Source: a virus
Length of the DNA: 64,000 bases
IMG/VR virus record: IMGVR_UViG_3300003322_000089
Coordinates: 1-64,000 of that record
Direction: 5' to 3' (one strand)
The notes beneath the pieces were generated by a model. The model saw nothing but the letters and a program-made list of their open reading frames with translations. It searched no databases and was not told where the DNA came from. Below, piece after piece: positions 3,127-41,888 of the stretch. Position 1 is the first letter of the stretch. Each line of letters starts with the position of its first letter. The position numbers were made by a program, and so were the translations under genes.

Positions 3127-3537
3127 ATGTATATTTTCGTATATGGGACCCTTATGCAGGGTTATGGGAATTGGAATAGATACCTCAGAGATCGTTCCCA
3201 ACTGATTACCAATGGGACTCTCAGGGGTTATAAGCTTTTTGATAGTGGATTTCCTGTTGCTTCTATCTCCCCTGATGATTGTGTCTATGGTCAAGTCTTC
3301 TTGATTGATGCAGGGAGAGAACCATCAGTTGTGAGAGATTTGGATTTCCTGGAGGGATACCACAAGGATTATCATGATGGCTCTATGTACCATCGTATTC
3401 CTGTGAGTATCTTTGGAGATGACGGAACCCAATATGAATGTGAGACCTACAGGGGTAATCTCAGATTCTGGAACAACTTTGAGGGAATGAGAGATGTATC
3501 AAGGGATGCAGAGAATAGATATCACTGGTCCAGATAG
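3127..3537 (+). CDS. Gamma-glutamyl cyclotransferase (AIG2/GGCT-like) protein
   Basis: N-terminal VYGTLMQGYGN (the YGTL/YGSL hallmark) plus LDFLEGY...YHR, which contains the catalytic-Glu region. Confidence 0.75.
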   Translation: MYIFVYGTLMQGYGNWNRYLRDRSQLITNGTLRGYKLFDSGFPVASISPDDCVYGQVFLIDAGREPSVVRDLDFLEGYHKDYHDGSMYHRIPVSIFGDDGTQYECETYRGNLRFWNNFEGMRDVSRDAENRYHWSR

Positions 3538-3775
3538 TTTTCAGGTTGGGGATATTATTGTAAGTCCATCATATACGAGGACTGTACTAAGAATTAATAC
3601 TGATGATAATGGATTACTCTATTGTTCCGTCATATACAATAACGACAAAAGATCGGTGGGCAATGCGACATATGAGTGGACTAATTTCGACTTTCCGGGT
3701 TACGAATTATACCGTCCTTATGCAGAAGCACCATACGATCCAACCCAAGTAGGGGATACAGAAGATGACATATGA
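3494..3775 (+). CDS. Tail-family small protein 1 (ends EAPYDPTQVGDTEDDI)
   Basis: Listed ORF with the conserved C-terminal peptide. Start is uncertain (ATG 3494 or 3506). FQVGDIIV strand motif near the N-terminus. Confidence 0.7.
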   Translation: MYQGMQRIDITGPDSFQVGDIIVSPSYTRTVLRINTDDNGLLYCSVIYNNDKRSVGNATYEWTNFDFPGYELYRPYAEAPYDPTQVGDTEDDI

Positions 3776-3914
3776 AGACAGATTGGCACAAAGAACCATC
3801 GAAGGGTATATTCAGAACTTCAGTGCCCTCAAGAGGGTGATCAAAGAGAAATCGTCATATAAGCCCAAGGAAGAGCTTTTGGGTAAAAGTGGTATCTCGT
3901 ATCGGATTTCATGA
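3765..3914 (+). CDS. Hypothetical small protein (49 aa)
   Basis: Its ATG is embedded in the upstream tail codons (GATGACATATGA), the same overlap pattern as at 4635, 6511 and 8831. Confidence 0.4.
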   Translation: MTYEDRLAQRTIEGYIQNFSALKRVIKEKSSYKPKEELLGKSGISYRIS

Positions 3915-4108
3915 GAAACGCTCTCAGCGAGCTTCTGTGTGTCAAAGAAGGGTATTATAGATGCTGGTGGGGTGGTCTGATTGGACATAGGGCAATAGGT
4001 GTCAGTTGGATCACCTCACATGAAGTACCTACTTGCAGTACTAAACCTTTTGAACTTGGTACTGCAAGAACATACATCAAGAACATACATCAAGAACTTA
4101 ACTATTAG
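3911..4108 (+). CDS. Hypothetical protein
   Basis: ORF with an ATGA overlap. Its 3' part contains a 10-bp perfect inverted repeat and a 13-nt tandem duplication, so it may be partly regulatory DNA. Confidence 0.4.
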   Translation: MRNALSELLCVKEGYYRCWWGGLIGHRAIGVSWITSHEVPTCSTKPFELGTARTYIKNIHQELNY

Positions 4109-4360
4109 TACTATACTAAAGTACTTAAAAATAAAAAAGAACCTAGAGAATTTACTATTGGAATAACCTATAGAACTGATTCTTGAAGTAATTACTAGAT
4201 GTAGTTACTTACAGTAATATACTTAAAGTATGATATTTTATCAGATTTGATTTCTTTTGTCAATAGGTAAATTCCATTGATCTTAGATTTATTTTTGTGT
4301 CCGATCAAGAGGCGATAGCCTCCTCACCCCCAGTTCCGTCCACCCCCCTAGGTTCCAAAG
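4109..4360 (+). promoter_or_regulatory. AT-rich non-coding spacer with TTCTTGAAGTA box, TTGTCAATAGGTAAAT box and a C-rich tract
   Basis: No ORF. It shares the boxes TTCTTGAAGTA (4180-4190), TTGTCAA-AGG-TAAAT (4257-4272) and a C-run element (4322-4352) with the 61.9-62.9 kb hub. Confidence 0.6.
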
Positions 4361-4645
4361 ATGACGACATTTAGAACAACAGATGTCCTTGTGTACAACG
4401 AGGAGTTCAGTGCAGATATGTTTCAACCAAACTTTGGCGACATCAACGATGAGTACGCACTACGTAGATCAAGAGATGTGACATTTAGTGATCGTTCATA
4501 CGGAGAAGAAGAAGGAGACCTCGTTTATGTCCGTAACTTGAGAACTGGTAACGAAGGGCGCGGGTTCTGGTGGAGACTTAAAGTCGGGTACACAAATACT
4601 CCATACGATCCTACTCAAGCTGGAGATACTGCAGATGACATCTGA
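4361..4645 (+). CDS. Tail-family small protein 2 (ends NTPYDPTQAGDTADDI)
   Basis: Listed ORF with the conserved C-terminal peptide. Confidence 0.75.
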   Translation: MTTFRTTDVLVYNEEFSADMFQPNFGDINDEYALRRSRDVTFSDRSYGEEEGDLVYVRNLRTGNEGRGFWWRLKVGYTNTPYDPTQAGDTADDI

Positions 4646-4850
4646 AAGAATGTCGGATCTAACGAAGTTAGAGATATCTGAGGGTGACACTGTGAGACTA
4701 AAGTTCACCAAGAGAAACAAGATGGGATGGCTCCATAGGCTATACGGTCCTGATCTTGTGGTTGACACTATTGTAGGTTCCTTGGTTTATCTGAGGGGGA
4801 TTCCACAACAACACAATGGGTGGTTACGTGACAGATTCGAGAAAGTTTAA
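4635..4850 (+). CDS. Hypothetical protein (G-D-x-V strand motif, no tail)
   Basis: Its ATG lies inside the upstream tail codons (GATGACATCTGA). An alternative GTG at 4690 sits behind GAGGG. Confidence 0.55.
   Translation: MTSERMSDLTKLEISEGDTVRLKFTKRNKMGWLHRLYGPDLVVDTIVGSLVYLRGIPQQHNGWLRDRFEKV
4655..4674 (+). promoter_or_regulatory. Copy a of the recurrent motif GGATYTAACGRAGTTARAGRGG
   Basis: GGATCTAACGAAGTTAGAGA, 10 nt after the stop of tail gene 2. Confidence 0.5.
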
Positions 4851-5082
4851 ATTTGGAGATCGTGTAGTCTACACTGGTGCATACAGTGAGTTCAATACTC
4901 TAAGTGCCATTGGTGAGACTGGTACAGTAAGTTCTATTAATGGCAATCAAGTGAATGTCGTCTGGGATAATATAAGACGGAATGAACTTTTTGGTTATTG
5001 GGGTGTGTACTCACAGAATATAGAACTTGAGTCTAAACCATACGACCCTACTCAAGCAGGGGATACCGATGATGATATTTAA
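4816..5082 (+). CDS. Tail-family small protein 3 (ends SKPYDPTQAGDTDDDI)
   Basis: Listed ORF with FKFGDRVVY motif and conserved tail. Start is uncertain (ATG 4816 or GTG 4828). Confidence 0.75.
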   Translation: MGGYVTDSRKFKFGDRVVYTGAYSEFNTLSAIGETGTVSSINGNQVNVVWDNIRRNELFGYWGVYSQNIELESKPYDPTQAGDTDDDI

Positions 5083-5159
5083 CTTCACGTAGCTCAACTG
5101 GATAGAGCCTCCGGTTTCTACCCGGATGGTTAGGGGTTCGAATCCCTTCGTGAAGGCCA
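5083..5159 (+). tRNA. tRNA-Arg (anticodon UCU), CCA encoded
   Basis: Hand-folded cloverleaf: acceptor CTTCACG/CGTGAAG, D arm GCTC-AACTGGATA-GAGC, anticodon arm TCCGG-TTTCTAC-CCGGA, T arm AGGGG-TTCGAAT-CCCTT, discriminator G, then CCA. Confidence 0.9.
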
Positions 5160-5160
5160 C

Positions 5161-5235
5161 TTTCCTTTCGTTTAATTGGTAAGACGCTGGTCTTTGGTAC
5201 CAGAAATCCATGTTCGAACCGTGGCGGGAGAGCCA
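5161..5235 (+). tRNA. tRNA-Gln (anticodon UUG), CCA encoded
   Basis: Hand-folded: anticodon arm CTGGT-CTTTGGT-ACCAG, T arm CCATG-TTCGAAC-CGTGG, D arm GTTT-AATTGGTA-AGAC. It has U1-A72 and G73. There is one 7:66 mismatch. Confidence 0.75.
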
Positions 5236-5375
5236 ATATGCATTTAAAAGCTCATAGACCGTTCCTACGTCACTCAGGTATGCTCTAAATCGACCATACA
5301 AGGCTGTACAGAGCGTTTCTAGAGTTTTATGATACTAGACACCAGAAACAAGTGAATGCTTGTCAGCGAGGTTAT

Positions 5376-5636
5376 ATGAAAGAAAATTGGGATTATGTAT
5401 CTTTTGAAAATTACTCGAAGGATATGCAAGAAAGCTCAGACAGGGCTTCAAATATAATCCGACAACAGAGAGGGGAGATTGATAGGTTAAATGAGCTCAT
5501 AGCTGGTTTGGTTTATAGTAATCCCAATCATGAAATCCTAATTCCAACTTCAAATCTCGACATAAACGATCTCAAATTAACTGTAAGTTACGATCCATGT
5601 GAAATGAGATACATCTACAAGGCAAATAGGAGATAA
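5376..5636 (+). CDS. Hypothetical protein
   Basis: ORF; ATG 5376 behind AGCGAGG is preferred over the listed GTG 5352. Confidence 0.55.
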   Translation: MKENWDYVSFENYSKDMQESSDRASNIIRQQRGEIDRLNELIAGLVYSNPNHEILIPTSNLDINDLKLTVSYDPCEMRYIYKANRR

Positions 5637-5637
5637 C

Positions 5638-6300
5638 ATGCCTGTAATTCATTCTAGCGTAAGTACTGTATGCACTGCAACTCATCTGACCAACTGGTCC
5701 CTTCCAGGATTTGATAGTGATGATGAGAAAGTCTTGGTGAATGCCAAGCTCAATGAGGTAGACCATCTGATGAAGGCAGGGTTCAAGAGGGACTTTGCCA
5801 TGATGGAAGTTATCGTCACAGAAACTCAGAGATCAAAGTACAAGCTGGATGAGTTCCTTCCGAAGATCGGATTTGAATTCACTCGTACATTCCCCAAGAG
5901 TGACGCAAAGAGCACTCAGCGTCACCAGGAAACAGGTGATCTTCACCTTTGGACCACCACTCCCAAGATCTATGAGAAAGCTCTAAAGGACTACCACAAG
6001 GAACTGACAGAACTCAAGGAGCGTATCGATCCTCCCAAGAAGCCTGATCCCAAGCGTCAGAAGTTCCCTGATCTCCTCTTGAGTGCCCTTCGTAAGGCAG
6101 AGATGGTTCAGAACAATACCTCTGTTAACAACCCCATCCATCAGGTTCTCACTGTCTCTGATGATGTACTCTATCGTCATCTCAAGATGAAGTACGGTAT
6201 TGATATCAAGAAGTGGAATAACCTTGGTGATGCATGGACCAAGATCACCATCCGTCAGTTGAAGCAGTATCAGATGGACTGGAAGGCTGAACTCGTATGA
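5638..6300 (+). CDS. Hypothetical protein (220 aa)
   Basis: Long ORF with plausible composition. No motif recognised. Confidence 0.65.
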   Translation: MPVIHSSVSTVCTATHLTNWSLPGFDSDDEKVLVNAKLNEVDHLMKAGFKRDFAMMEVIVTETQRSKYKLDEFLPKIGFEFTRTFPKSDAKSTQRHQETGDLHLWTTTPKIYEKALKDYHKELTELKERIDPPKKPDPKRQKFPDLLLSALRKAEMVQNNTSVNNPIHQVLTVSDDVLYRHLKMKYGIDIKKWNNLGDAWTKITIRQLKQYQMDWKAELV

Positions 6301-6521
6301 GGACCTATCCTTGTTATCTCCGTTCCAAAGAAAGCGGCAACCTCTACTTCTTTGAAGGGAGAGGTTATGAATGTACTTTTATTGAAACTTCAAGGAATCA
6401 TTCTCAATACCGCTCAGGTCAAAAGGTTGTTATTGGGTACACATCTGAGGATAAGTTCCTGTGGACAGAGGAATCTCCATATGATCCAACCCAAGTAGGG
6501 GACACAGAAGATGACATCTAG
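6297..6521 (+). CDS. Tail-family small protein 4 (ends ESPYDPTQVGDTEDDI)
   Basis: ATGA overlap with the upstream stop. Conserved tail. Confidence 0.75.
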   Translation: MRTYPCYLRSKESGNLYFFEGRGYECTFIETSRNHSQYRSGQKVVIGYTSEDKFLWTEESPYDPTQVGDTEDDI

Positions 6522-7131
6522 TAACAAGGGTAAGGTCTATGTCGTAGGTACAGACAGGAATGTCACCAGTATGTTCTTCGAGAGGGGCTATATGATCACC
6601 CATAGACAGTCAGATGCTGACATTCTTTGTTTCATTGGTGGTGCTGATATTGACCCCAATTTCTATGGACAAAAGAAGAACCCTGTCTTGAATATTAATA
6701 CATCACCCACTTGTGATGCCAGAGATAGTCAGGCTTGGAAACAGAAGACCTCTAATCAATTGTCTGTAGGTATTTGCAGGGGTGGACAATTCCTTTCGAG
6801 TATGTCCGGTGGGAGTATGATCCAGCATGTTGTAGGTCATATGGGAGTCCATAAGGTCTATGATACTGTCTGGAACACAGAGGTACAAGTTGCCTCTTGT
6901 CATCATCAAATGATGGTTCCTGGTCCAGATGCAGAAATCTTTGCCTATACCGAGGATCATGCAAAAGAGGCTTGGGACGATCAAGGAAAGATTGAAGTAC
7001 CCAAGGTAGAACCAGAGGTTATCTGGTACGACAAGACCAAGTGCCTGTGTTATCAAGGTCATCCTGAGTGGAACCCTCAGACAGGTACAGACTATTTCTT
7101 CAATCTCCTTGAGTTGGTTAAGGATTGTTAG
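6511..7131 (+). CDS. Class I glutamine amidotransferase-like / peptidase C26 (gamma-glutamyl hydrolase-type) protein
   Basis: GGADIDPNFYG, nucleophile elbow GICRGGQF, HHQ and GHPEW, in the typical C26/PuuD-like order. Its ATG is embedded in the upstream tail codons. Confidence 0.7.
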   Translation: MTSSNKGKVYVVGTDRNVTSMFFERGYMITHRQSDADILCFIGGADIDPNFYGQKKNPVLNINTSPTCDARDSQAWKQKTSNQLSVGICRGGQFLSSMSGGSMIQHVVGHMGVHKVYDTVWNTEVQVASCHHQMMVPGPDAEIFAYTEDHAKEAWDDQGKIEVPKVEPEVIWYDKTKCLCYQGHPEWNPQTGTDYFFNLLELVKDC

Positions 7132-7133
7132 AT

Positions 7134-7382
7134 ATGAAGTGGAATGTAGGTGAAGAGGTTGAAGTTGTAACCAAGAGGCATGGTGGAAGCCAATTCGGTC
7201 TGATTGGTACTGTAATGAAGAATGACGGCTCTAATTATGGGTCCGGACTAGATCATATAGTGGACTTTGGTGAGATGATCAGGGGTTGCCTAAGAATAAA
7301 TTACTATTCGTACTCCGATCTCCAAACTACTGAGAAACCATATGACCCTACTCAGGTAGGGGATACTGATGACGATATCTGA
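7134..7382 (+). CDS. Tail-family small protein 5 (ends EKPYDPTQVGDTDDDI)
   Basis: MKWNVGEEVEVV start at ATG 7134 (the listed ORF begins at TTG 7125). Conserved tail. Confidence 0.75.
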   Translation: MKWNVGEEVEVVTKRHGGSQFGLIGTVMKNDGSNYGSGLDHIVDFGEMIRGCLRINYYSYSDLQTTEKPYDPTQVGDTDDDI

Positions 7383-7389
7383 TCGTCTT

Positions 7390-7411
7390 GGATTTAACGA
7401 AGTTAGAGAGG
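7390..7411 (+). promoter_or_regulatory. Copy b of the recurrent motif GGATYTAACGRAGTTARAGRGG
   Basis: GGATTTAACGAAGTTAGAGAGG, 8 nt after the tail-gene stop and 9 nt before TTG-TGT of the GAT-II gene. Confidence 0.5.
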
Positions 7412-7420
7412 ATATTTAAT

Positions 7421-8542
7421 TTGTGTGGACATCTAGGAATGATGGGTCCAGGTATTCAACGAGAAGACCTTGCGATCATTAAACAATTGGGTATTGTCTC
7501 TCAGCTAAGGGGACTTGATGGTTCTGGTATCTACCAGACAAGAACTACAAAGTACAATGCCTACTCTCCAAACTACGATCTCCTGTTCAAGACATACAGT
7601 CCATTCTCTAGCATTCTTGATGAGTCGTCTGGACATAATGGGAAGTACAAAGAACTCTTGAACTCTGTGATGGTCGATGTTGTCATTGGTCACGTAAGGG
7701 CTAGTACTCAGGGTGTAATCTCCGATCAGAATGCTCATCCTTTTGAGTTCGATAACATCGTAGGTGCTCACAATGGTACTCTTAAGGATGCTCAGTACCT
7801 CTCTCATCCAGTGAAGACAGATTCTGAATTAATGTTCAAGGATATCAGCAAGAGGGGTATTACTCCTGTTGTAGAAGCTCTGGATAGAGACTCTGCCTTT
7901 GCCATCGTTATGTACGATAAGATAGACAAGCATGTTTATTTTGTCCGGAACGAACTTAGGACACTGTGTTTTGCCTTCATCAAGGACAGAGCAGTCATGT
8001 ATTGGGCGTCTGAACTGGTCATGCTTGAGTATATCCTGAAGAGAAATCACCAGGATTATAGGATTTTCTCTCTTCATGAGAATTATCTTATCAAAATCAA
8101 CCCCAATGATATAACTCTAAACAATAATAAAAAAGAAGATCCTCTTGACATTCTGAAAGTCCATAAGAAACTCGTGCGTCCACTTCCCACCTCATACCAA
8201 AAAGCTAAGGATGAGATGGAACGCAGGAAGAAACTGGAGAAAGAGAAAGAAACCAAGAGTAACTGGACCCCTGATCAGTACTCCTTCGAGTTGAATAAGA
8301 CAAAGGATAAAGGAGGTAAAGTACTCCAAGGAAATTTTCCACAGACCAAAATCAAGAGCAAACCATTCTCAGTGAAGAGTTGCTATACTCGTTGTGCCTG
8401 TGGCAAAACTACTTTGAATTTGTTGGAAACCAATCAGACCCATCGGGGAATTCATCCTAGGTATCGTTACGATAAGTCAGAGAAAAAGATCTATTGTGAT
8501 GTATGTCCAGACAACAAGATCGAGTGCAAAGAGGTGGTATGA
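7421..8542 (+). CDS. Class II (Ntn) glutamine amidotransferase-domain protein with a long C-terminal extension and Cys-rich end
   Basis: TTG 7421 is followed directly by Cys (CGHLGMMG), as required for an Ntn nucleophile. GHVRASTQG and NAHPF motifs. C-terminal CxC...CxxC. Confidence 0.7.
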   Translation: MCGHLGMMGPGIQREDLAIIKQLGIVSQLRGLDGSGIYQTRTTKYNAYSPNYDLLFKTYSPFSSILDESSGHNGKYKELLNSVMVDVVIGHVRASTQGVISDQNAHPFEFDNIVGAHNGTLKDAQYLSHPVKTDSELMFKDISKRGITPVVEALDRDSAFAIVMYDKIDKHVYFVRNELRTLCFAFIKDRAVMYWASELVMLEYILKRNHQDYRIFSLHENYLIKINPNDITLNNNKKEDPLDILKVHKKLVRPLPTSYQKAKDEMERRKKLEKEKETKSNWTPDQYSFELNKTKDKGGKVLQGNFPQTKIKSKPFSVKSCYTRCACGKTTLNLLETNQTHRGIHPRYRYDKSEKKIYCDVCPDNKIECKEVV

Positions 8543-8841
8543 TGAAAAATCCTGCAAGTACGGAGAGGTTGGTTTTTAATGTCGGTGACGAAGTTGAATT
8601 TGTGGGGCGGGTGGGTGATCTCGGCTCTCAGTTTGAGGGTTCTGTTGGGACTATAATTAACCCCTCTGATCCAGCTTGGAAATCTCATTTAGTGTGTTGT
8701 GTTAGATTTCATTCTGGTTCATTAGCTGGAAGAGTATCTACTGGACGACAAGGAGGGTACTGTGTGTATTCAAGACACCTAGCACTAGCATCTAAACCCT
8801 ATGATCCAACCCAAGCTGGAGACCAAGACGATGACATTTAA
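8539..8841 (+). CDS. Tail-family small protein 6 (ends SKPYDPTQAGDQDDDI)
   Basis: ATG 8539 overlaps the upstream TGA, with GAGGTGG upstream. FNVGDEVEFVG motif. Confidence 0.75.
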   Translation: MMKNPASTERLVFNVGDEVEFVGRVGDLGSQFEGSVGTIINPSDPAWKSHLVCCVRFHSGSLAGRVSTGRQGGYCVYSRHLALASKPYDPTQAGDQDDDI

Positions 8842-9079
8842 TGTAGGTGATCGTATAGAGTATTTTAGAGGGAACTCCTTAGCCAATGAGAGGTTCTTTG
8901 GGCTAACTGGGACTATCGTGGGAAAAATGTCGTACGGAATGGTGGCCATCCGGTGGGATCACTATTGTCTAGAAAATATGTATGCAGATACGAGATGTGT
9001 CTGGTCAGTCCATAATATAAAACCACTTATGAACGATTATGATCCTACTCAGGTAGGTGATACTGAGGATGATATCTAA
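8831..9079 (+). CDS. Tail-family small protein 7 (ends NDYDPTQVGDTEDDI)
   Basis: MTFNVGDRIEYF start at an ATG embedded in the upstream tail codons (GATGACATTTAA). Confidence 0.75.
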   Translation: MTFNVGDRIEYFRGNSLANERFFGLTGTIVGKMSYGMVAIRWDHYCLENMYADTRCVWSVHNIKPLMNDYDPTQVGDTEDDI

Positions 9080-9796
9080 ATGACGACAATTAAAATTGGA
9101 TGTGACCCAGAGTCATTCATTGTAGATGGCAAGGGTGATTTTATTCCAGCCATTGGTATTATTCCTGGAGATAAGGAAAATCCATACCCTGTGGATGGTG
9201 GTGCAGTTCAAGTCGATGGATTGGCAGTAGAGTTTAATATTCACCCTGCCGAGACGGCAGATCAGTTTGTTGGGAATATCAAGAAGGTTCTCTACCAGAT
9301 TGATGAGATGATACACTCCTTTGATAAGGACTTTTCCATCAGGCATACACCGGTAGCTACATTCCGTCAGACCATCTGGAATATGGCACCAGAACAAAGC
9401 AAGATCCTCGGGTGCGACCCAGATTATAATGTCAAGGGGGATATCAACGAGAACCCTACAATGAGACTGGAAAATAGTACCATCCGTACTGCTGCCGGTC
9501 ATATCCACATTGGTTGGCTTGATGAACTCCTTGAAGACCCAATGCAGGGAGATCATTTTGAGACGTGCTTGGACATTGCCAATGGTTTCTTCCACGGTCA
9601 TCTATCCACCTTCATTCCTAGTACACAGGAAGAAGAAGAGCGGATGAAATACTACGGTCACAATGGTTCTTTCCGTCCCAAGAAGTATGGTATTGAACTC
9701 CGTGCACCAAGCAACCTTTGGGTTAGAACCGAAGAAACTCAGAAGCTTATCTTCAATCAGACAAGGAAGAAGTTCCATGAGCTTACAGGACTATAG
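9080..9796 (+). CDS. COOH-NH2 ligase, glutamine-synthetase/GCS fold (phage 'type 2' amidoligase-like)
   Basis: N-terminal GCDPESF...G..QVDG.AVEFNI.P pattern plus HIHIG. From memory this matches the phage phiEco32-like COOH-NH2 ligase type 2 family. Not verified. Confidence 0.55.
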   Translation: MTTIKIGCDPESFIVDGKGDFIPAIGIIPGDKENPYPVDGGAVQVDGLAVEFNIHPAETADQFVGNIKKVLYQIDEMIHSFDKDFSIRHTPVATFRQTIWNMAPEQSKILGCDPDYNVKGDINENPTMRLENSTIRTAAGHIHIGWLDELLEDPMQGDHFETCLDIANGFFHGHLSTFIPSTQEEEERMKYYGHNGSFRPKKYGIELRAPSNLWVRTEETQKLIFNQTRKKFHELTGL

Positions 9797-9807
9797 GGAG
9801 TGTAATC

Positions 9808-10089
9808 ATGTTACCGGCCTTTAAAGTTGGTGATGAAGTTGAGTACAGACACCCACATATGGAAGTAAAAGATTTGGATGGTTCTTTTGGATATATAGTG
9901 GCTGTATTTCCCAGAAGATTTCAGGACCCACCTGAAGAAGTTCATCATTATCATGTTAATTGGGAATCTGGTCCTGCTGTATTTCAAAAAATATATACTA
10001 GTAACACTCGATGGGGAGAGCCTGTACTACATCTGTCAAGTAATACATATGATCCCACTCAAATGGGTGATACTGATGAAGACATCTGA
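9808..10089 (+). CDS. Tail-family small protein 8 (ends NTYDPTQMGDTDEDI)
   Basis: FKVGDEVEY motif and conserved tail. Confidence 0.75.
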   Translation: MLPAFKVGDEVEYRHPHMEVKDLDGSFGYIVAVFPRRFQDPPEEVHHYHVNWESGPAVFQKIYTSNTRWGEPVLHLSSNTYDPTQMGDTDEDI

Positions 10090-10110
10090 AAGAATGTTCT
10101 AGAGGGTAAG

Positions 10111-10731
10111 ATGAAACAACGTTGGAAAGGTGATGATGTTAAGGCTCGTCTCCATGGGACCATCATCAGATATAAGAGCCATCCGTACCTCTGTGGAGTA
10201 GACGGACATAGCATTAATCTAATCGATCTCCAGACTGGTAGTACAGTTGGTACTGTGGACAGTGACGATGATCTCCTTGATGTATCTAGTGTACCTCTTG
10301 GCTATGTGAATATTGTCCACCCTGATTACAAACTTTGTGTTTATCTCAAGCGTGACCCTCTTCGTAGGTTCAAGCAGGGTGTAGAAGTAGATATCCTCAC
10401 TCAGAAGATCCTAAGGGATGGTTGGAGTCCTATCAGCAGGGATATTATTCGTTCCAAGTCTCTTGTTGACACAATTCTTGGACGGTTCCCTTCATACAAG
10501 GAGGCTCTGGATTTCATTACGAAGAAGGGTTTCCATTCTGTGGCTTTGAGTAGAGACATTGCTCTTAAACGGGAGGGTGAACTCCTTAAAGTATATCTCA
10601 AAGAGTCTGAAGTTGGGTACATTCGACTTGGTACTGACAGGGTGATTGTCCCCAAGACAGACCAGAGCTACTATCACATTCTACTTCTAGAAGATCTCCA
10701 TGGTTGGGAAGTAATCGAGGGTTCAAAATGA
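10111..10731 (+). CDS. Hypothetical protein (206 aa)
   Basis: ORF with GAGGG upstream. No motif recognised. Confidence 0.65.
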   Translation: MKQRWKGDDVKARLHGTIIRYKSHPYLCGVDGHSINLIDLQTGSTVGTVDSDDDLLDVSSVPLGYVNIVHPDYKLCVYLKRDPLRRFKQGVEVDILTQKILRDGWSPISRDIIRSKSLVDTILGRFPSYKEALDFITKKGFHSVALSRDIALKREGELLKVYLKESEVGYIRLGTDRVIVPKTDQSYYHILLLEDLHGWEVIEGSK

Positions 10732-10991
10732 GAAAAGAAGTAGTTCCAGGAATTTATGATGGTGATGAGCTAGAGTTTGTAGGTAATGCTCCTAGCTGGA
10801 TTAAGGACAGTCCCATTAGGGCATTCTACTCAGAACTGTACACACAGATGAGGTCACATTACATTACTATACGAATCGGCGGAATGAGTTACAATCCCGA
10901 TGATTGTCATTCATACTCTGCTAAAGATCTTAGACTTAAAGAACAACCATATGATCCGACACAAGCAGGGGATACCGATGAGGATATTTAA
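10728..10991 (+). CDS. Tail-family small protein 9 (ends EQPYDPTQAGDTDEDI)
   Basis: ATGA overlap with the upstream stop at 10728 (the listed ORF begins at 10704). Conserved tail. Confidence 0.75.
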   Translation: MRKEVVPGIYDGDELEFVGNAPSWIKDSPIRAFYSELYTQMRSHYITIRIGGMSYNPDDCHSYSAKDLRLKEQPYDPTQAGDTDEDI

Positions 10992-11013
10992 CCCCCGTAG
11001 GAGGGTCTTCATT

Positions 11014-11035
11014 GAATCTAACGGAGTTAGAGAGG
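11014..11035 (+). promoter_or_regulatory. Copy c of the recurrent motif (GAATCTAACGGAGTTAGAGAGG)
   Basis: Lies between tail genes 9 and 10. Its GAGAGGG end serves as the SD for ATG 11043. Confidence 0.5.
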
Positions 11036-11042
11036 GTGACAT

Positions 11043-11309
11043 ATGATTGAAGTTGGTGATTATGTAGAATACTGCTTTGAGGGGTATGGGAACGAGCGTT
11101 ATCATGGAAGTATAGGAAGAGTTCTAGAAGTTAGAAATTACTACGGATACAGTGAATACCAATGTGCAGTATTTTGGGAAAGTGGTCTACTTTCTGAACA
11201 CGAAAGTTATAAAACCCCAAGACTATTCTGGGACAGAACCATCAAGAAGGCCTGCGTTAATAGAGATTACGACCCCACACAGATGGGTGACACTGAGGAC
11301 GACATTTAA
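11043..11309 (+). CDS. Tail-family small protein 10 (ends RDYDPTQMGDTEDDI)
   Basis: IEVGDYVEY motif and conserved tail. Confidence 0.75.
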   Translation: MIEVGDYVEYCFEGYGNERYHGSIGRVLEVRNYYGYSEYQCAVFWESGLLSEHESYKTPRLFWDRTIKKACVNRDYDPTQMGDTEDDI

Positions 11310-11318
11310 GGATTTAAA

Positions 11319-12347
11319 ATGAATCAGATTGTAAATGTTTATGATATTCTAAAGGCTCAGACCAAGTTCTCTGGTGATCGTCATCATGGTGAATTTGGTG
11401 TGGAGATCGAGACTGAGACAGAGAAGTCTTATGAATACCCCAAGATGAAATTCTGGAACACAACCAAGGATAATTCCTTGCGTGATTGGGGTGTGGAATA
11501 TGTTCTCAAGGCTCCCATGAACCTTCCTGAATTTGAGAAAGCTCTTGAAGAATTCTCCATTTGTGAGAAGAAATACAAGTTTAGGAATGGATCTATCTCT
11601 ACCAGTGTCCATGTCCATATTAATTTTCAGAATGATACCTTCTTGACATTGGCAAACTTCTGTACTGCCTATGCATTGGTAGAGAATCTTCTGATCAAAT
11701 ACTCTGGACCAGACCGGTTGAGTAATCTTTTCTGTCTTCCGATGTGTGATGCAGAGGGTGTTGTCTCCAATATTGTTAACCTATTGTCATTTGTCAACAG
11801 GAATATGTATGCCAAGGTTCCTGGATCAGTGTCAGTAGACAGGTGTAAGTATGGTGCACTCAATCCAGCACCTATTACCACACTAGGAACTCTCGAAGTT
11901 AGATGTTTCAGGGGTGAGACAGACTCCAAAATCATCCAACGATGGGTAGAAATCATCAAGAAACTGAAGGATTTTTCTCGTAGGGAGGGCTTGACACCAC
12001 CAGATATCCTCAAACTCTGGAAGGAAAACAAGGCTACCATCGTCGATATCATCTTCCAAGAGTATGCAAGTGACCTTAAGTATAAGGAAACTGATGAACT
12101 GATTCGTAAGAATTTGAAGTATGCAGCAGATATTGCTTGTGTTTCCAAGACTTGGGATAAATTCGGTATCCTTAAGATCAAACCTGTCTATAAGGAAGTG
12201 GCTAAGGACAAGTTGGACAGGATCTCCAATGATATGTTCCAGAGGCTCTACGATTCCCTCAACTACCATGAGCGTATTGCAGTGGCAGAGAAGTATCAAG
12301 CAATGAACCCTACAACAAGAATCGTGGATCTAAATGACGATATCTAG
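11319..12347 (+). CDS. Putative amidoligase (Amidoligase_2-like, GS fold); ends in VDLNDDI
   Basis: GEFGVEIETE and STSVHVHI motifs, typical of the 'putative amidoligase enzyme' family (from memory). The acidic C-terminus resembles the tail. Confidence 0.6.
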   Translation: MNQIVNVYDILKAQTKFSGDRHHGEFGVEIETETEKSYEYPKMKFWNTTKDNSLRDWGVEYVLKAPMNLPEFEKALEEFSICEKKYKFRNGSISTSVHVHINFQNDTFLTLANFCTAYALVENLLIKYSGPDRLSNLFCLPMCDAEGVVSNIVNLLSFVNRNMYAKVPGSVSVDRCKYGALNPAPITTLGTLEVRCFRGETDSKIIQRWVEIIKKLKDFSRREGLTPPDILKLWKENKATIVDIIFQEYASDLKYKETDELIRKNLKYAADIACVSKTWDKFGILKIKPVYKEVAKDKLDRISNDMFQRLYDSLNYHERIAVAEKYQAMNPTTRIVDLNDDI

Positions 12348-12354
12348 TATCGTT

Positions 12355-12374
12355 GGATTTAACGAAGTTAAAGG
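12355..12374 (+). promoter_or_regulatory. Copy d of the recurrent motif (GGATTTAACGAAGTTAAAGG), followed by an orphan tail-end relic
   Basis: Located 8 nt after the amidoligase stop. 12371-12390 (AAGGATGATATCTAAATGAC) matches 9065-9084 at 19 of 20 positions. Confidence 0.5.
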
Positions 12375-12385
12375 ATGATATCTAA

Positions 12386-13186
12386 ATGACAATTACAGCA
12401 ATCTTTGCTTATGCAAACTACTCTGAAGGTGCTAATGAGCTAAAGACAGCTCTTGGTGTCCCTAAGATCAAGCACACAGGTTCCAAGTTTAAAGCAGCTC
12501 CCACCAAAACTATTCTTAACTGGGGGGCTACGACAGATAGGTTCCCTGAAGAATACAATAGATGCAATGTCATCAATAAGCCTCAGAATGTCGATCTTGC
12601 AGTAGATAAGAAGAAGGCATTCCGTAAATTCAGAGAACATGGAGTATCTATTCCTGAGTTCACAGAGGACAAGGAAACTGCTACCCAATGGCTTGAAGCA
12701 GGGCAGATGGTCTTTGCTCGTACTAGACTCCATGATCATAGCGGTCGCGGTATCGTCATCATGGACCCTGAATTTCCTGATACTTGGGAAGTAACGGCAG
12801 AACTGTTCGTCAAATACGTTCCCAAGAAAGATGAATACCGCATCCATGTTCTCAATGGACAGATCATCGACATTCAGCGTAAGGGTCTTCGTGCAGAGTT
12901 GAGAGGTTCTGAGGGTATCAACTATAAGATCAGAAATCTTTCTAACGGTTTCATCTATGTCCGTAACGATAGTAATGAGACCCCCCTGATCTCTTCTGCA
13001 TCAGTCCCTCAGATTGTCAAGGATGTGGGTATTGCAGGTGTTCAGGCACTGGGTCTTGACTTTGGTGCTGCCGATGTAATCTACAATGAGAAATCTCGTA
13101 GAGCATATATCCTTGAGGTCAACAGCGCGCCGGGCCTAAGTGGCTCTACTGTAACCAACTATGCAGAGGCATTTGGACGGCTATGA
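12386..13186 (+). CDS. ATP-grasp ligase (RimK-like)
   Basis: Size and motif layout of RimK-type ATP-grasp enzymes: FARTRLHDHSGRGIV, KYVPKKDEYRIHV and ILEVNSAPGL. Confidence 0.7.
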   Translation: MTITAIFAYANYSEGANELKTALGVPKIKHTGSKFKAAPTKTILNWGATTDRFPEEYNRCNVINKPQNVDLAVDKKKAFRKFREHGVSIPEFTEDKETATQWLEAGQMVFARTRLHDHSGRGIVIMDPEFPDTWEVTAELFVKYVPKKDEYRIHVLNGQIIDIQRKGLRAELRGSEGINYKIRNLSNGFIYVRNDSNETPLISSASVPQIVKDVGIAGVQALGLDFGAADVIYNEKSRRAYILEVNSAPGLSGSTVTNYAEAFGRL

Positions 13187-13458
13187 GAATCCAAGATTAT
13201 CCATTTGAACCTATTACTAAAGATACTGTACTATCTGTAGGTGATATCTTTTATGAAAATAATTATCAGTATTATATTACTTACATTGATGACACAACTT
13301 TCAGATACATAGCCAGTAGTTTTATTCATGATTGGACTGGTAAAGAAAGTACTAGTCAATTGAGTTCCATTACAAACTCTAATGGATACTTCAAGAAAGT
13401 AATCTTTGAAAGACCCTATGATCCCACCCAAGCGGGTGACACAGACGACGATATCTAA
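13183..13458 (+). CDS. Tail-family small protein 11 (ends ERPYDPTQAGDTDDDI)
   Basis: ATGA overlap with the ATP-grasp stop. Conserved tail. Confidence 0.75.
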   Translation: MRIQDYPFEPITKDTVLSVGDIFYENNYQYYITYIDDTTFRYIASSFIHDWTGKESTSQLSSITNSNGYFKKVIFERPYDPTQAGDTDDDI

Positions 13459-13475
13459 TTAAGGAATTAATAACA

Positions 13476-14615
13476 GTGTGTGTGATTCTCCATCTATCTG
13501 CTGGTGCTACTATCAACAAGCGTCAACTCTATAACGCTGTACATAACAATTGGCATGGCTTTGGTCTAGTTCTTAAGGACCAGAATAATCGTATCCAACT
13601 CACCAAGGGCTTCAGGGAAAACGGTACTGACCCTGAAGAGATCTGGAAGCTTCTGGAAGATAACAAAGATATCGAACGGTATCTTCATGTCCGTCATTCC
13701 ACTCGTGGTGCACCAGATGATACCAACGTTCAGCCCTTTGAAGTTTACAATTCCAATGAACGTCAGATCTTCTTCATGCACAATGGCACCCTATCCTCAT
13801 TTGGAGGGGCGTGGAACAACGATCAGGGAAAGAGTGATACACTAGAGTTCTGCGAGAAGATTCTCTCCCCCGCCCTTCTACGTTGGTCTGGTGCCAATGG
13901 TAAAGCTGACTATACCGATGAAGAATTCTTTCGTCTGGTAATGGAAAAGCAGTGGTCATCTGGCTCCACTGGTCTGTTCGTTTCCAACGATCTTGAACCC
14001 AGACGTATTGGTGCTGGATGGTCAGAATACAAACACCCAGATGACACCAGTAGTGGTACTGTCTGGACTTCCAATACTTCCTATTTCGATAGGGTTCAGC
14101 GTGGGCCTGAATTTCAAAGGTTGGAAGCAATCAAGAAAGCAGAGGAAGAGAAGAAAAAGGAGGAGATGAACTCCTTAGTCCCTTTCGACCAGACGAATGC
14201 GAAAACCAGATCGAGTATTATGCAAGAATGGGGTGGGGGTCCGAATGGGCATACTACAACTACTGAAGTCCTGAAGTTTAATGCCAGCAATCTTGCCAAG
14301 TCTCCAAAAGTCCTTAAGGCTCTCTCTGATATTGTTAACACTTGGGACTTTGAAAATCCTGAAGACCTCCAGAAGCTCCGTTTTGTTGCATATGATGAAT
14401 GGATCAACTTCATTGACAGTGAAGGAGAGTGGGCTGTAGCTGCATTCATTGAGCATCTTACTCACCATTATCATGACATGTTCTTCAAGAATCTTGCTCT
14501 TATCGAGATGGTAAAGAAAGCAGAAACAAAGCAGAGGAAGGCAGAACAGCATATTTCCAACCTAAAGCAAATCACTTTGGAAAAGAATCCTGTAGGTAAA
14601 AATGAAGCTGCGTAG
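13476..14615 (+). CDS. Class II (Ntn) glutamine amidotransferase-domain protein, second copy
   Basis: GTG start followed directly by Cys (MCVILH). HVRHSTRG, NVQPF and HNG motifs. The C-terminal half is K/E-rich. Confidence 0.7.
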   Translation: MCVILHLSAGATINKRQLYNAVHNNWHGFGLVLKDQNNRIQLTKGFRENGTDPEEIWKLLEDNKDIERYLHVRHSTRGAPDDTNVQPFEVYNSNERQIFFMHNGTLSSFGGAWNNDQGKSDTLEFCEKILSPALLRWSGANGKADYTDEEFFRLVMEKQWSSGSTGLFVSNDLEPRRIGAGWSEYKHPDDTSSGTVWTSNTSYFDRVQRGPEFQRLEAIKKAEEEKKKEEMNSLVPFDQTNAKTRSSIMQEWGGGPNGHTTTTEVLKFNASNLAKSPKVLKALSDIVNTWDFENPEDLQKLRFVAYDEWINFIDSEGEWAVAAFIEHLTHHYHDMFFKNLALIEMVKKAETKQRKAEQHISNLKQITLEKNPVGKNEAA

Positions 14616-15201
14616 TGCAAGAAACTCGTATGATATCATCGGTACATCTGCCAAGAATACTCCAGACTGGATGGACCTAAAGAAATCTGCATATGATGAA
14701 TTCCTTGTCTTTGTAGTTGGTAACACTCGTAGGTATAGATCCAGGTCTGCCCTTATGGAGGGTGCCAACTATTATGGTGAGGGTGTAACATTCGATGATA
14801 ATTATATTATGAAGAGATCAATGACAGCGGCTGGAAATAAAAACCCGGAACCACTGTTGTTCACATTTGATAAGGTTAAGAATTGGAATGATTTTAAACC
14901 CATCTTCCGTAGAGAACATTTAAAGCATATCGAAGGTGATGTATACGGTATCCCACTCCGAAAGCTTGCTCAACTCGATCAATATGAAGGTAATGGAGAT
15001 TTCATCACCAGAATTTCCAGATGGGTAAAACTCCTTCATCCCAAACAAGAAGGTACTACTGTTAAAGCATGGATGTGGGTAGTGGACACTGATGCTTGGA
15101 TGGAATGTTATTCGGGTGGAAATGAACTCAATCTTTGTAACACTATTAATCATATGGTAGGTCCAGAAAAGGAGTCCTTCAATGCCTACTACTTTGCATA
15201 A
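14602..15201 (+). CDS. GGCT/AIG2-like protein, divergent second copy
   Basis: LVFVVGNTRR replaces YGTL. VYGIPL...LDQYEGNGDFITR matches the catalytic-Glu segment seen in 3127..3537. Confidence 0.5.
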   Translation: MKLRSARNSYDIIGTSAKNTPDWMDLKKSAYDEFLVFVVGNTRRYRSRSALMEGANYYGEGVTFDDNYIMKRSMTAAGNKNPEPLLFTFDKVKNWNDFKPIFRREHLKHIEGDVYGIPLRKLAQLDQYEGNGDFITRISRWVKLLHPKQEGTTVKAWMWVVDTDAWMECYSGGNELNLCNTINHMVGPEKESFNAYYFA

Positions 15202-15496
15202 ATATGACGGTGATGATTACGAATATGTAAGCACCAAAGATATTCTTGTTGGTGATATTGTTATTCACAAATCTTGGTTAGCAAATGCAGGGTCTAAGAT
15301 AACGTATGAGATTGTCTATAATAATCCACAAGAAGAGAGGATCTACGGTATTGATCCTAGATGGGATAGCAGATCAAGAAACTCTGACTATAGATGGAAT
15401 TACAGTAGTAACTTCGGATACACTGGGTGGCTACGTAAAGTAACTGAGTATCCTTACGACCCAACACAAATGGGAGATCAAGAAGATGATATTTAA
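15182..15496 (+). CDS. Tail-family small protein 12 (ends EYPYDPTQMGDQEDDI)
   Basis: ILVGDIVIH motif and conserved tail. Confidence 0.75.
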   Translation: MPTTLHKYDGDDYEYVSTKDILVGDIVIHKSWLANAGSKITYEIVYNNPQEERIYGIDPRWDSRSRNSDYRWNYSSNFGYTGWLRKVTEYPYDPTQMGDQEDDI

Positions 15497-15806
15497 AGAT
15501 CTGGTACTTTCTGAATTTAAATCTTGGGATGAGATCCTTCTTGGAGATAAACTTGTCTGGTGTAGAGATGGTAAAGTTTTGTATGATTACTTAGTGTCTT
15601 TTGAAAGATTAACAGACTATGAGATGTTTGGTTCTAATGAAATAGGAGACCCAGACGATGATGATGACTATGATAGTGAAGGAGACGGATGGAGTAGAGA
15701 CATTTATCCGACAAAAAGTTATTCCATGATTTGTGGTTGGATGAAGGTGGTGGAAGAAGTTCCATATGATCCCACACAAATGGGAGATCAAGAAGATGAT
15801 ATTTAA
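15486..15806 (+). CDS. Tail-family small protein 13 (ends EVPYDPTQMGDQEDDI)
   Basis: Its ATG is embedded in the upstream tail codons (GATGATATTTAA). Conserved tail. Internal poly-Asp stretch. Confidence 0.75.
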   Translation: MIFKDLVLSEFKSWDEILLGDKLVWCRDGKVLYDYLVSFERLTDYEMFGSNEIGDPDDDDDYDSEGDGWSRDIYPTKSYSMICGWMKVVEEVPYDPTQMGDQEDDI

Positions 15807-16122
15807 TCTAGGTGATGTAGTAGAGTATACCAATAAGAAGTATAAGGCAGATATGATTGGGTATATCATTGCCTATGAGGGTTCCTATGTTTGTGTAGAG
15901 ACTCTCAGTGGTGATAGTGGGTGTACACAAGAAAAGTCTTGGTTCTGGAAGAATGAACAGAGTGATTATCTTTCTGACAGATTTGAGCAACTGGGTTTTG
16001 CAAGTGGGTATACTTCGAAGAGTGATAAATGCCAATGGATTCCTAAGAGGTCTCGTAACCTCAAGCAAGCAATAAGAGAATACGATCCTACACAAGCAGG
16101 GGATACCGATGAGGACATTTAA
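15796..16122 (+). CDS. Tail-family small protein 14 (ends REYDPTQAGDTDEDI)
   Basis: MIFNLGDVVEY start at an ATG embedded in the upstream tail codons (the listed ORF begins at 15766). Confidence 0.75.
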   Translation: MIFNLGDVVEYTNKKYKADMIGYIIAYEGSYVCVETLSGDSGCTQEKSWFWKNEQSDYLSDRFEQLGFASGYTSKSDKCQWIPKRSRNLKQAIREYDPTQAGDTDEDI

Positions 16123-16402
16123 GATCATCGACTATTTTGCTAACTTGTTCTATGGAAAGATATATAAAAAGAAATTTAATATTGGAGACCGAGTTAGATA
16201 CAAGCCAACAAAAGCATTCTGGCAAAACCTTACTATCATAAAGTATGACTTCTGTTATAATGGTAAATGGTGGATTGTAGCCGAAGATACGGATGACCCA
16301 AGTTATAGAAAGATACCTGTTGAGGAACACAGTCTGGAACTTGTCTGTGTAGAACATCCTTATGATCCCACTCAGATGGGTGATACAGATGAAGACATTT
16401 AA
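16109..16402 (+). CDS. Tail-family small protein 15 (ends EHPYDPTQMGDTDEDI)
   Basis: Its ATG lies inside the upstream tail codons (GATGAGGACATTTAA). FNIGDRVRY motif. Confidence 0.75.
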   Translation: MRTFKIIDYFANLFYGKIYKKKFNIGDRVRYKPTKAFWQNLTIIKYDFCYNGKWWIVAEDTDDPSYRKIPVEEHSLELVCVEHPYDPTQMGDTDEDI

Positions 16403-16456
16403 CCTCCTATGGAGGGTCTTCATTGGAATTTAGCTACGCTAAAAAGAGGATGATAT

Positions 16457-16491: not shown

Positions 16492-16755
16492 ATGACAAAA
16501 GATAAACTCAAGGAACTTCAAGAACTATCTCGTACAGTAAATCGTAGTGGTACGAACAGGTGCAGCCTGTGTAATTGTGTATCAAATGAGAGTATCGAAA
16601 CAGAGATTGGTGATTACCGTCATCACATGAGTTTCACACAAGATCCAAAGTTTAATGACTCTGTTATCTGTATTACATGCGCAGAGGTTATCGAAGATCA
16701 ACGACAAGACTATGAATATCTAGATCTAAACGACGATTACGATTTTGATAATTAA
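16492..16755 (+). CDS. Small zinc-finger protein with an acidic C-terminus (LDLNDDYDFDN)
   Basis: CSLCNC...CITC, i.e. four Cys in two pairs. Confidence 0.6.
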   Translation: MTKDKLKELQELSRTVNRSGTNRCSLCNCVSNESIETEIGDYRHHMSFTQDPKFNDSVICITCAEVIEDQRQDYEYLDLNDDYDFDN

Positions 16756-41105: not shown

Positions 41106-41117
41106 CTCTGTCTATCC

Positions 41118-41669: not shown

Positions 41670-41671
41670 GA

Positions 41672-41881: not shown

Positions 41882-41888
41882 ATATCAC

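Follow-up and report, generated by a model that had tools for sequence, protein, structure and literature searches.

A C-terminal peptide shared by fifteen small phage proteins, the amide-bond enzymes encoded among them, and its occurrence on bacterial histidyl-tRNA synthetase

Why should a phage encode many small, dissimilar proteins that all end in the same peptide, and what would recognise that peptide? The question is raised by IMG/VR record IMGVR_UViG_3300003322_000089, of which positions 1–64,000 were analysed (the window, 64,000 nt; coordinates are window positions). The first 36 kb of the window, on the + strand, is the early/replication arm of a phage, and the structural genes lie on the opposite strand. 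Fifteen open reading frames (ORFs) of this arm share the ending YDPTQ[AVM]GD[TQ]x[DE]DI-stop, in fuller form (P)YDPTQxGD(T/Q)xxDI-COOH, and are interleaved with enzymes of amide-bond chemistry. We infer that this ending, hereafter the tail, serves as a shared recognition handle through which many different small domains reach one partner. The peptide is portable: the bodies that carry it are diverse, it is uniform within genomes and different between them, and it has been transplanted onto host histidyl-tRNA synthetase (HisRS).

Fifteen small proteins with one acidic ending

The 15 ORFs had been listed in an earlier reading of the sequence (the original prediction), and all were confirmed with their coordinates and ending (3494–16402, all on the + strand). 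A six-frame search of the 64 kb with DPT[QE].GD returned exactly 15 matches, all on the + strand between 3.5 and 16.4 kb and a few residues before a stop. Nine tail positions are invariant (Y-13, D-12, P-11, T-10, Q-9, G-7, D-6, D-2 and I-1). Three of the remaining positions are restricted to [AVM], [TQ] and [DE], and one is [ADE] with a single Ala. All 15 genes lie in the 13-kb enzyme block, and none was present in the other ~20 kb of same-strand early genes. The tail genes are as follows.

3494–3775, +, tail gene 1, 93 aa, ends PYDPTQVGDTEDDI
4361–4645, +, tail gene 2, 94 aa, ends PYDPTQAGDTADDI; the ATG of ORF 4635–4850 lies inside the tail
4816–5082, +, tail gene 3, 88 aa, ends PYDPTQAGDTDDDI; the model shows a KOW/SH3-like barrel of five strands, with the tail as coil
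6297–6521, +, tail gene 4, 74 aa; the ATG of the C26 gene lies inside the tail
7134–7382, +, tail gene 5, 82 aa
8539–8841, +, tail gene 6, 100 aa; the ATG of tail gene 7 lies inside the tail
8831–9079, +, tail gene 7, 82 aa; the ligase gene (9080) begins at the base after the stop
9808–10089, +, tail gene 8, 93 aa
10728–10991, +, tail gene 9, 87 aa
11043–11309, +, tail gene 10, 88 aa
13183–13458, +, tail gene 11, 91 aa
15182–15496, +, tail gene 12, 104 aa
15486–15806, +, tail gene 13, 106 aa
15796–16122, +, tail gene 14, 108 aa
16109–16402, +, tail gene 15, 97 aa

Mean pairwise identity among the 15 genes was 0.84 in the 13-aa tail and 0.25 in the bodies, in agreement with the strong divergence of the bodies that had been predicted. 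In the tail DNA, identity was 0.93 at codon positions 1 and 2 and 0.40 at position 3. At invariant residues, two copies used the same codon at a frequency of 0.44; the codon usage of the genes themselves predicts 0.47. Because synonymous sites are scrambled while the residues are invariant, the copies are old and free of gene conversion, and selection has acted on the peptide rather than on the DNA, as the original prediction had argued. Judged from these substitution patterns, the tail is under strong purifying selection and is constant within the genome.

A DNA origin of the ending was considered, since at six junctions the ATG of the next gene lies within the final GAT-GAY-ATH-stop codons of a tail (4635, 6511, 8831, 15486, 15796 and 16109), with a Shine-Dalgarno-like GGNGAY 7 nt upstream of the ATG. 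The shared ending would then be the by-product of a copied gene-junction cassette (ribosome-binding site plus overlapping start) spread by tandem duplication, without peptide function. Besides the six of 15 junctions, two observations fit this explanation: the LENE endings of other phages, described below, are clearly Shine-Dalgarno DNA, and out-of-frame DDI-stop remnants precede the starts of genes 2038, 4361, 12386 and 16492. Against it, synonymous sites are scrambled around nine invariant residues, and the YDPTQ among them plays no part in a junction; for eight tails the next start neither overlaps nor directly abuts; and HisRS retains the peptide. A junction role therefore cannot explain the tail, and we regard a cassette origin as very improbable here: the codon evidence mainly rules it out for this clade, while it holds for LENE-type endings elsewhere. 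Junction overlap may help to fix the last tail residues, and the cassette may still add constraint on the final three in this clade. The out-of-frame ..DDI-stop remnants themselves (at ~2040, 4363, 12374 and 16449) lie before or across the four gene starts and suggest decayed tail genes or a reused junction cassette.

The bodies were compared with known folds. The motif h-x-h-G-[DEN]-x-h was found in 12 of the 15 proteins within residues 2–23; thus the predicted strand motif is present in most of them, but it is not always at the very start. An AF2 model of tail gene 3, built from the 15-paralogue alignment, is a five-strand barrel with a coil tail (pLDDT 73), and its best Foldseek matches in the PDB were Spt5/NusG KOW domains and eL21 (E ~1e-3, TM 0.5–0.6). 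Pfam SH3_12 matched two members at 1e-3, below its cut-off; no other family was found for the 15 proteins in Pfam or PHROGs, and a word-index protein search with one of them as query returned only the query itself. The model gives moderate confidence that the bodies are KOW/SH3-like barrels, which is in line with the SH3-like barrel first suggested. The 15 ORFs are real, old paralogues that combine this small, predicted beta-barrel with a flexible, acidic C-terminal peptide of 13 residues.

The enzyme block and its phage relatives

Eight enzymes had been predicted between the tail genes. Pfam and PHROG profiles upheld all eight calls, and none was reassigned to another family. The enzymes and two conserved proteins of the block are as follows.

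3127–3537, +, GGCT-like protein 1 (gamma-glutamyl(amine) cyclotransferase-like); GGACT 1e-17, phrog_2520
5638–6300, +, conserved unknown of 220 aa, phage-clade-specific; no family, clade orthologues 41–55% identical
6511–7131, +, C26 / class-I GATase-fold, gamma-glutamyl hydrolase-like; Peptidase_C26 1e-11, phrog_7218 8e-39
7421–8542, +, Ntn GAT-II a; GATase_6 1e-10, phrog_4736 4e-47, Cys-rich C-terminal extension
9080–9796, +, phiEco32-type COOH-NH2 ligase (type 2); phrog_3815 1e-56, Pfam PF14395 0.007
10111–10731, +, conserved core module protein of 206 aa with no known function; phrog_11055
11319–12347, +, Amidoligase_2 (GS/GCS-fold ligase); Amidoligase_2 5e-8, phrog_7469 3e-48, C-terminus ..VDLNDDI
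12386–13186, +, ATP-grasp ligase (PHROG 'S6 glutaminyl transferase'); phrog_2599 2e-71
13476–14615, +, Ntn GAT-II b; weak match, GATase_4 3e-5, begins MC, ends AA/VA in the clade
14602–15201, +, GGCT-like protein 2; GGACT 3e-7

GAT-II a starts with TTG-TGT, hence with Cys2 right after fMet. The COOH-NH2 ligase scored 16 bits in Pfam (cut-off 25), while its PHROG match was strong. The 206-aa core protein was modelled confidently (pLDDT 87), and no PDB fold match was found for it (best E 0.035, TM 0.23). A search of the ATP-grasp and amidoligase sequences against the PDB gave nothing informative, and no block enzyme matched PafA/Dop (Pup-ligase) family models. Against the RimK, MptN, graspetide-maturase and R2K models the ATP-grasp did score, but in each case far short of the cut-off: for RimK, TIGR00768 at 27.1 bits (cut-off 143.4) and PRK10446 at 15.9 (cut-off 331). 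Thus, the predicted ATP-grasp fold stands, and 'RimK-like' describes resemblance rather than family membership. Its nearest characterised relatives (RimK, MptN and the graspetide maturases) act on peptide or protein carboxylates, a weak hint, by homology, of what the phage enzyme may do.

The graspetide scores bear on a different view, in which the small proteins are precursors or scaffolds whose Thr/Asp-rich tail the ATP-grasp would cyclise as in graspetides, or on whose C-terminus amino acids would be built up as in pearlins and then released by C26 and GGCT. The ATP-grasp has weak likeness to graspetide maturases (TIGR04187 28.6 bits, 8e-7; MvdC 19.7 bits, 4e-4), the tail holds two Thr and five or six acidic residues, several precursor genes beside a ligase are typical of clusters for RiPPs (peptides made on the ribosome and modified after translation), and enzymes suited to release are present in the block. 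However, both scores are far below their cut-offs (350 and 425 bits), and RiPP precursors have a conserved leader and a variable core, whereas the 'leader' here is a folded, highly variable domain. In addition, a survey of graspetides contains no phage systems, and no PEARL, protease or exporter gene was recognised in the block. We consider precursors a distinctly improbable explanation.

Other features of the block were noted. The Amidoligase_2 of all clade members examined closes with acidic residues and, in last place, I, V or L (12327–12347 in the window; ..VDLNDDI, ..VDLTEDV, ..VYSEEDI, ..VDADGDI). This ending is similar to that of the tail and could be a pseudo-substrate or a shared end for docking. 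GAT-II b (14595–14615) ends with AA or VA in 11/11 clade members (NEAA, QKVA, DKAA, AEAA), reminiscent in sequence of ssrA-type protease tags. Genes for tRNA-Arg(TCT) (5083–5159) and tRNA-Gln(TTG) (5161–5235) form a pair that starts at the base after the stop of tail gene 3 (4816–5082); CAA, which is decoded by tRNA-Gln(UUG), is the codon of the invariant tail Gln in 11 of the 15 copies. The 15-mer TAACGAAGTTAGAGA has four + strand copies (4660, 7395, 11019 and 12360; 0–2 mismatches; ~0.2 expected), three of which end ~11 nt before the starts of GAT-II a (7421), the tail gene at 11043 and the ATP-grasp (12386). It could be either a leader for translation initiation that these genes share or the leftover of a duplicated N-terminus (..DLTKLE..). 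A hairpin followed by a common motif (CC.CC.TA.GGAGG, then GTCTTCATTG) occurs at 10992–11014 and 16403–16425, right after tail genes 9 and 15; these copies may be terminators or regulatory sites that delimit sub-operons. The array ends with a Cys-rich, zinc-ribbon-like protein of 87 aa (16492–16755; acidic end ..DDYDFDN), which precedes the primase-helicase and has a counterpart in Rhizobium phage RHph_N3_19 ending ..YEYQDQFEDE.

The Amidoligase_2, ATP-grasp, GAT-II and GGCT genes of the window are co-directional, adjacent and upstream of the replication genes, in synteny with RHph_N3_19, phiM6, PaP3 and YW01. The same module enzymes, in the same order upstream of the primase-helicase, occur in phiEco32-like, PaP3/LUZ24-like, PA11/TC6, RIO-1, phiM6 and many other podophages, and the type 2 ligase of the window matches that of the phiEco32-like module. 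The module was found in >300 sequenced phages and >500 IMG/VR stretches. Iyer, Abhiman, Burroughs and Aravind reportedly described it in 2009, with PF14395 and PF12224 proteins encoded beside ATP-grasp, GAT-II and GGCT genes.

We then asked how far the tail extends beyond the window. Among 50,697 phage records, the only DNA relatives were Rhizobium phages RHph_N3_19, I3_11 and N3_13, and Sinorhizobium phage phiM6 is related to them at the protein level (primase-helicase 71–78% identical). RHph_N3_19 has no integrase and therefore looks lytic. It has the same enzyme order with ~20 small ORFs interleaved, ending Y[DN]PxQxGD[TR][DE][DE]DI or a shorter YDQ[ST]GDT[ED]EDI; IMG/VR clade members also show the interleaving, with variants ending YDPSQEPDDEDDV, YSPDQNGDxDDDI and YDPKQQ[RP]DEEDDI. 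phiM6 (MH700630, 3556–8161) carries the same enzymes and 13 small ORFs, packed just upstream of or around the first GGCT gene, with the tail [DE]Y[KR]xDQEP[LM][ED][ED]E[ED]x[LI]-stop. A scan of IMG/VR for the phiM6-type tail gave zero matches, and no sign of greater divergence was seen for any single enzyme of phiM6, despite the different tail.

A module-blind scan of 2.9 million IMG/VR contigs with the back-translated tail pattern yielded about a dozen contigs with real tails and four single chance matches. All real-tail contigs belong to this clade (65–70 kb genomes). Every fragment that reaches the module region has the module enzymes, and the shorter ones have only clade primase/polymerase genes or more tails. 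When 1.84 billion cluster representatives were searched with a tail profile, 67 proteins of 48–122 aa matched at the extreme C-terminus; three long proteins that also scored were rejected as unrelated PYDPT-repeat proteins. YDP-type tails were present in every member found of this clade, which comprises the three Rhizobium phages and about 15 metagenomic contigs. By these searches the tail family is real, narrow and clade-specific. A complete-size clade genome with 14 tail genes, QFPW01000021.1 (67,886 bp), is binned in a metagenome-assembled genome of Rhodovulum sulfidophilum, and the binning may be either an artefact or a host clue.

Small proteins with other shared endings were found in unrelated podophages. 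Among 80 IMG/VR loci retrieved via the ATP-grasp, at least four same-strand ORFs with the same last three residues occurred in 13, with up to 17 copies; no locus had such a set on the opposite strand. The endings outside the clade, in module-bearing podophages, were SLENE (17 copies), SLENK (14), xENE (10) and FKGNK (5–6), and eight copies of MENE were present in Zobellviridae phage T2S1-k141_477764 (PQ867848, locus stretch 40177–47287). A hidden Markov model (HMM) of the window proteins with their tails removed, iterated over 19,463 ORFs, tied small ORFs of Zobellviridae-like and other podophages to the window family (E 1e-5 to 1e-11). These matches indicate one predicted superfamily of 'MF.VGD.V' barrels with genome-specific C-termini, encoded among the same enzymes. 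In the SLENE-type locus the ending is TTG-GAG-AAT-GAA-stop, with GAG in 17/17 copies, in the fixed DNA TTGGAGAATGAATRA(TG). Because GAG never varies and the ending sits at a stop/start junction, the LENE-type ending is Shine-Dalgarno DNA and largely a DNA signal.

Histidyl-tRNA synthetase and candidate readers of the tail

Exact tail-pattern scans covered one genome per species (185,579 species) and the JGI metagenomes. The only long cellular ORFs with a Y-x-x-x-Q-x-G-D tail were HisRS, and the other matches were phage fragments. In Rhizobium binxianense (6038–7750 of the chromosome stretch) and Rhizobium sp. L43 (6888–8000, minus strand), HisRS ends ..SGFET[SP]YDPAQAGDTDDDI. Two HisRS from metagenomic contigs end ..EGLPYDPNQVGDTEEDI and ..EGYEFPYDPAQNGDRDDDI, and a further tail from a homology search reads ..YSISYDPNQSGDTDDGV. 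Exact look-ups found annotated HisRS with the R. binxianense-type tail sequence in several R. leguminosarum genomes, and an annotated HisRS of Agrobacterium tumefaciens identical to one metagenomic-contig form; Agrobacterium sp. fls2-241 has a diverged tail, ..AYDRNQVGDLADDV. Rhizobium/Agrobacterium-type bacteria are likely hosts of the window phage.

The C-terminal extension that bears the tail is 16–18 residues long, and nearly all other HisRS members read from the same 90%-identity clusters are 506–507 aa without it, stopping 16–17 residues earlier. The G+C content at third codon positions (GC3) was 0.25–0.50 in the hisS tail codons and 0.63–0.82 in the rest of the gene, so that the tail codons look recently imported from AT-richer, phage-like DNA. 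At least four different hisS-tail junctions were found, and presence of the tail varies between strains. These observations, with a single recipient gene, argue for repeated, selected capture. hisZ lies directly downstream of the tail-bearing hisS in three loci, and the fourth locus ends too early. The neighbourhoods of these hisS genes had no module enzymes. The phiM6-type tail was not found on HisRS, though no host-genome scan was aimed at that tail.

To relate tail families to the enzymes, loci of at least 10 kb were compared. Of 86 module-bearing loci, 16 had families with a recurrent C-terminus, and of 24 module-lacking loci none did (p = 0.02, a value that ignores phylogeny), and the body HMM had no match in any module-lacking locus examined. 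The presence of C26 did not correlate with tail families (p = 0.38). The dependence is one-way: the family is seen only alongside the enzymes, and the enzymes are usually without the family. This fits add-on substrates or adaptors, and also a family that simply arose and spread within lineages that happen to bear the module.

We tentatively favour the co-encoded amide-bond enzymes as the most likely reader or modifier of the tail. The ranking is based on the one-way dependence, the interleaving and the carboxylate/gamma-amide chemistry of the enzymes; moreover, a partner in the same genome best explains the concerted change of the tail. In such a scheme, a carboxylate of the tail, on a side chain or at the C-terminus, would be activated by the ATP-grasp and the two GS/GCS-fold ligases, which would then attach an amino acid or amide to the tail or cross-link it. 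Trimming, amidation or removal of these gamma-linked additions would fall to the C26, GAT-II and GGCT-like proteins. Because most module-bearing phages have no tail proteins, the tail family would be a set of add-on substrates or adaptors in this lineage, outside the core purpose of the module. In some host strains, HisRS that bears the tail would likewise be a target of the reader or would titrate it. A writer/eraser system of this kind had been proposed in the original prediction and is plausible as a candidate explanation: the family was seen only with the enzymes, but the enzymes occur mostly without the family, and the HisRS capture points to a partner or target that had not been considered.

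Several observations weigh against the enzymes as readers. The tail ends in Asp-Ile, neither the Glu-Glu of RimK substrates nor the GGQ/GGE of Pup. Of the module-bearing loci, 81% lack a recurrent-C-terminus family, and the module-bearing phages phiEco32-like YW01, PaP3, DES1 and RIO-1 have no tail family. The enzymes must thus have a job that is independent of tails. The original prediction would have been contradicted by tails without enzymes, which were not found, or by the reverse, which is common. The phiM6 tail is very different, and yet its enzymes are no more diverged than those of members with YDP tails. In the LENE/LENK lineages, small ORFs are also found among the replication genes, and the short tails there consist for the most part of Shine-Dalgarno DNA. 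Since the carriers of the YDP tail form one clade, co-occurrence is inseparable from common descent. Finally, according to three papers citing Iyer et al. 2009, the proposal for the module is cell-wall modification or superinfection exclusion (PMC10580990, PMC6256558, PMC11318856), instead of the peptide tagging named in the original prediction; those papers mention no substrate, companion or shared-tail family.

The tail could instead have nothing to do with the neighbouring enzymes and dock 15 different small domains onto one hub protein, the best candidate being host HisRS or something that acts on HisRS. The fused tail on HisRS would then either pre-occupy the site, giving protection in cis, or serve as a decoy. 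In line with published proposals, the task of the enzymes would be to build or alter either the cell wall or a small gamma-glutamyl compound. HisRS is the only cellular carrier of the tail in the scans above, which is evidence of the Rosetta-stone type. The low GC3 of the tail codons, the at least four junctions and relatives of ≥90% identity without a tail indicate repeated recent capture and imply selection; the module is also common without tails. As a precedent, the small Vs (tau) protein of phage T4 binds host valyl-tRNA synthetase (ValRS). On the other hand, the phiM6 tail is very different although HisRS is highly conserved between Rhizobium and Sinorhizobium. Docking also leaves unexplained why the family was seen only with the enzymes and is interleaved with them, and it is not evident why one synthetase should need 15 adaptors. 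This explanation is on balance less likely than not, but it is a serious rival that ranks close behind the enzyme reading, because the HisRS fusion is the only evidence that names a partner and in most phages the enzymes serve some other purpose.

A sorting or turnover signal appears improbable, though slightly less so than a precursor role. Such a signal might package the small proteins into the capsid for injection, recruit them to a phage compartment, or act as a degron or anti-degron for a host protease. Encapsulin cargo and many degrons use an exposed, disordered C-terminal peptide on unrelated cargo, and the tail was transferable to HisRS. GAT-II b keeps its degron-like AA/VA end throughout the clade members examined, a hint that signals at the C-terminus are important in these phages. 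However, the tail genes belong to the early/replication arm, and the structural genes are read from the other strand; the acidic tail is unlike known ClpX or Lon C-degrons; and the association with the enzymes is left unexplained.

These readings are not mutually exclusive. If the phage enzymes act on any tail-bearing protein, tail-bearing HisRS would be a host-encoded substrate that works like a decoy or tripwire. A more speculative combined view, which we hold to be doubtful, is that the tail is a transferable tag in a phage-host contest: 15–20 phage adaptors would be marked for the enzymes or a hub, and hosts would have repeatedly stolen the tag onto HisRS, either as a tripwire or decoy that stops translation or as a cis competitor that keeps phage proteins off HisRS. 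If true, this would be a new anti-phage defence, or a phage takeover of an aminoacyl-tRNA synthetase, operating via capture of a short linear motif.

Comparison with known systems

The enzyme module was already known. In Pfam, PHROGs and the searchable literature we found neither the tail family nor its relatives whose endings are specific to each genome, nor the capture of the tail by hisS; the family and the capture appear to be undescribed, and literature searches found nothing on phage glutamylation or tagging of such proteins. To our knowledge, the module has been without a known substrate since its description in 2009, and the 15–20 co-encoded tail proteins are concrete candidate substrates for a widespread orphan module. 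The candidates can be tested at once in phages already in culture, namely RHph_N3_19, its relatives and phiM6. The strain-level grafting of a phage peptide onto HisRS is an unusual capture of a motif by an essential gene, and it names a host protein. Should the tail prove to be a code for modification or docking, the result would be a small, portable tagging system with practical uses.

The enzyme families of the window are those of the phiEco32-like module. The set in the window is expanded by a second GGCT, a second GAT-II, C26 and two unknowns, and it is accompanied by the 15 tail genes. By analogy, the system resembles pairs of an enzyme and a C-terminal tail such as RimK-S6, Pup-PafA and the tubulin tail code. 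With RimK-S6 it shares an ATP-grasp and an exposed acidic C-terminus, and PHROGs names the phage enzyme after RimK. E. coli S6 ends ..AEAGDSEE, which resembles QAGDTDDDI. The window tail, however, ends in Asp-Ile, the enzyme scores 27 bits against a cut-off of 143, and 15 candidate substrates are encoded in cis instead of one ribosomal protein.

In Pup-PafA/Dop and tubulin TTL/TTLL-CCP, GS-fold or ATP-grasp ligases act on disordered acidic tails and dedicated enzymes remove the additions; GGACT-type enzymes resolve gamma-glutamyl-amine links. The window differs in that it has neither a PafA/Dop or TTL signature nor a GGQ/GGE end, and its carriers are folded and diverse; conjugation or glutamylation would be putative here. 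The graspetide and pearlin pathways likewise use a C-terminal segment as the substrate of an ATP-dependent ligase, with several precursor genes beside the enzyme. The Thr and Asp of the tail recall graspetide precursors, but the roles are reversed in the window: the part upstream is a variable folded domain without a shared leader motif, the C-terminus is constant, the enzyme is below threshold and the setting is a phage.

As docking systems, the C-terminal tip of SSB (..DDDIPF) is an acidic handle, and T4 Vs (tau) targets host ValRS. The window tail lacks the terminal Pro-Phe that is essential for binding of the SSB tip. Like Vs, the tail proteins would be small, early phage proteins that target an aminoacyl-tRNA synthetase; here it is the gene fusion that suggests HisRS.

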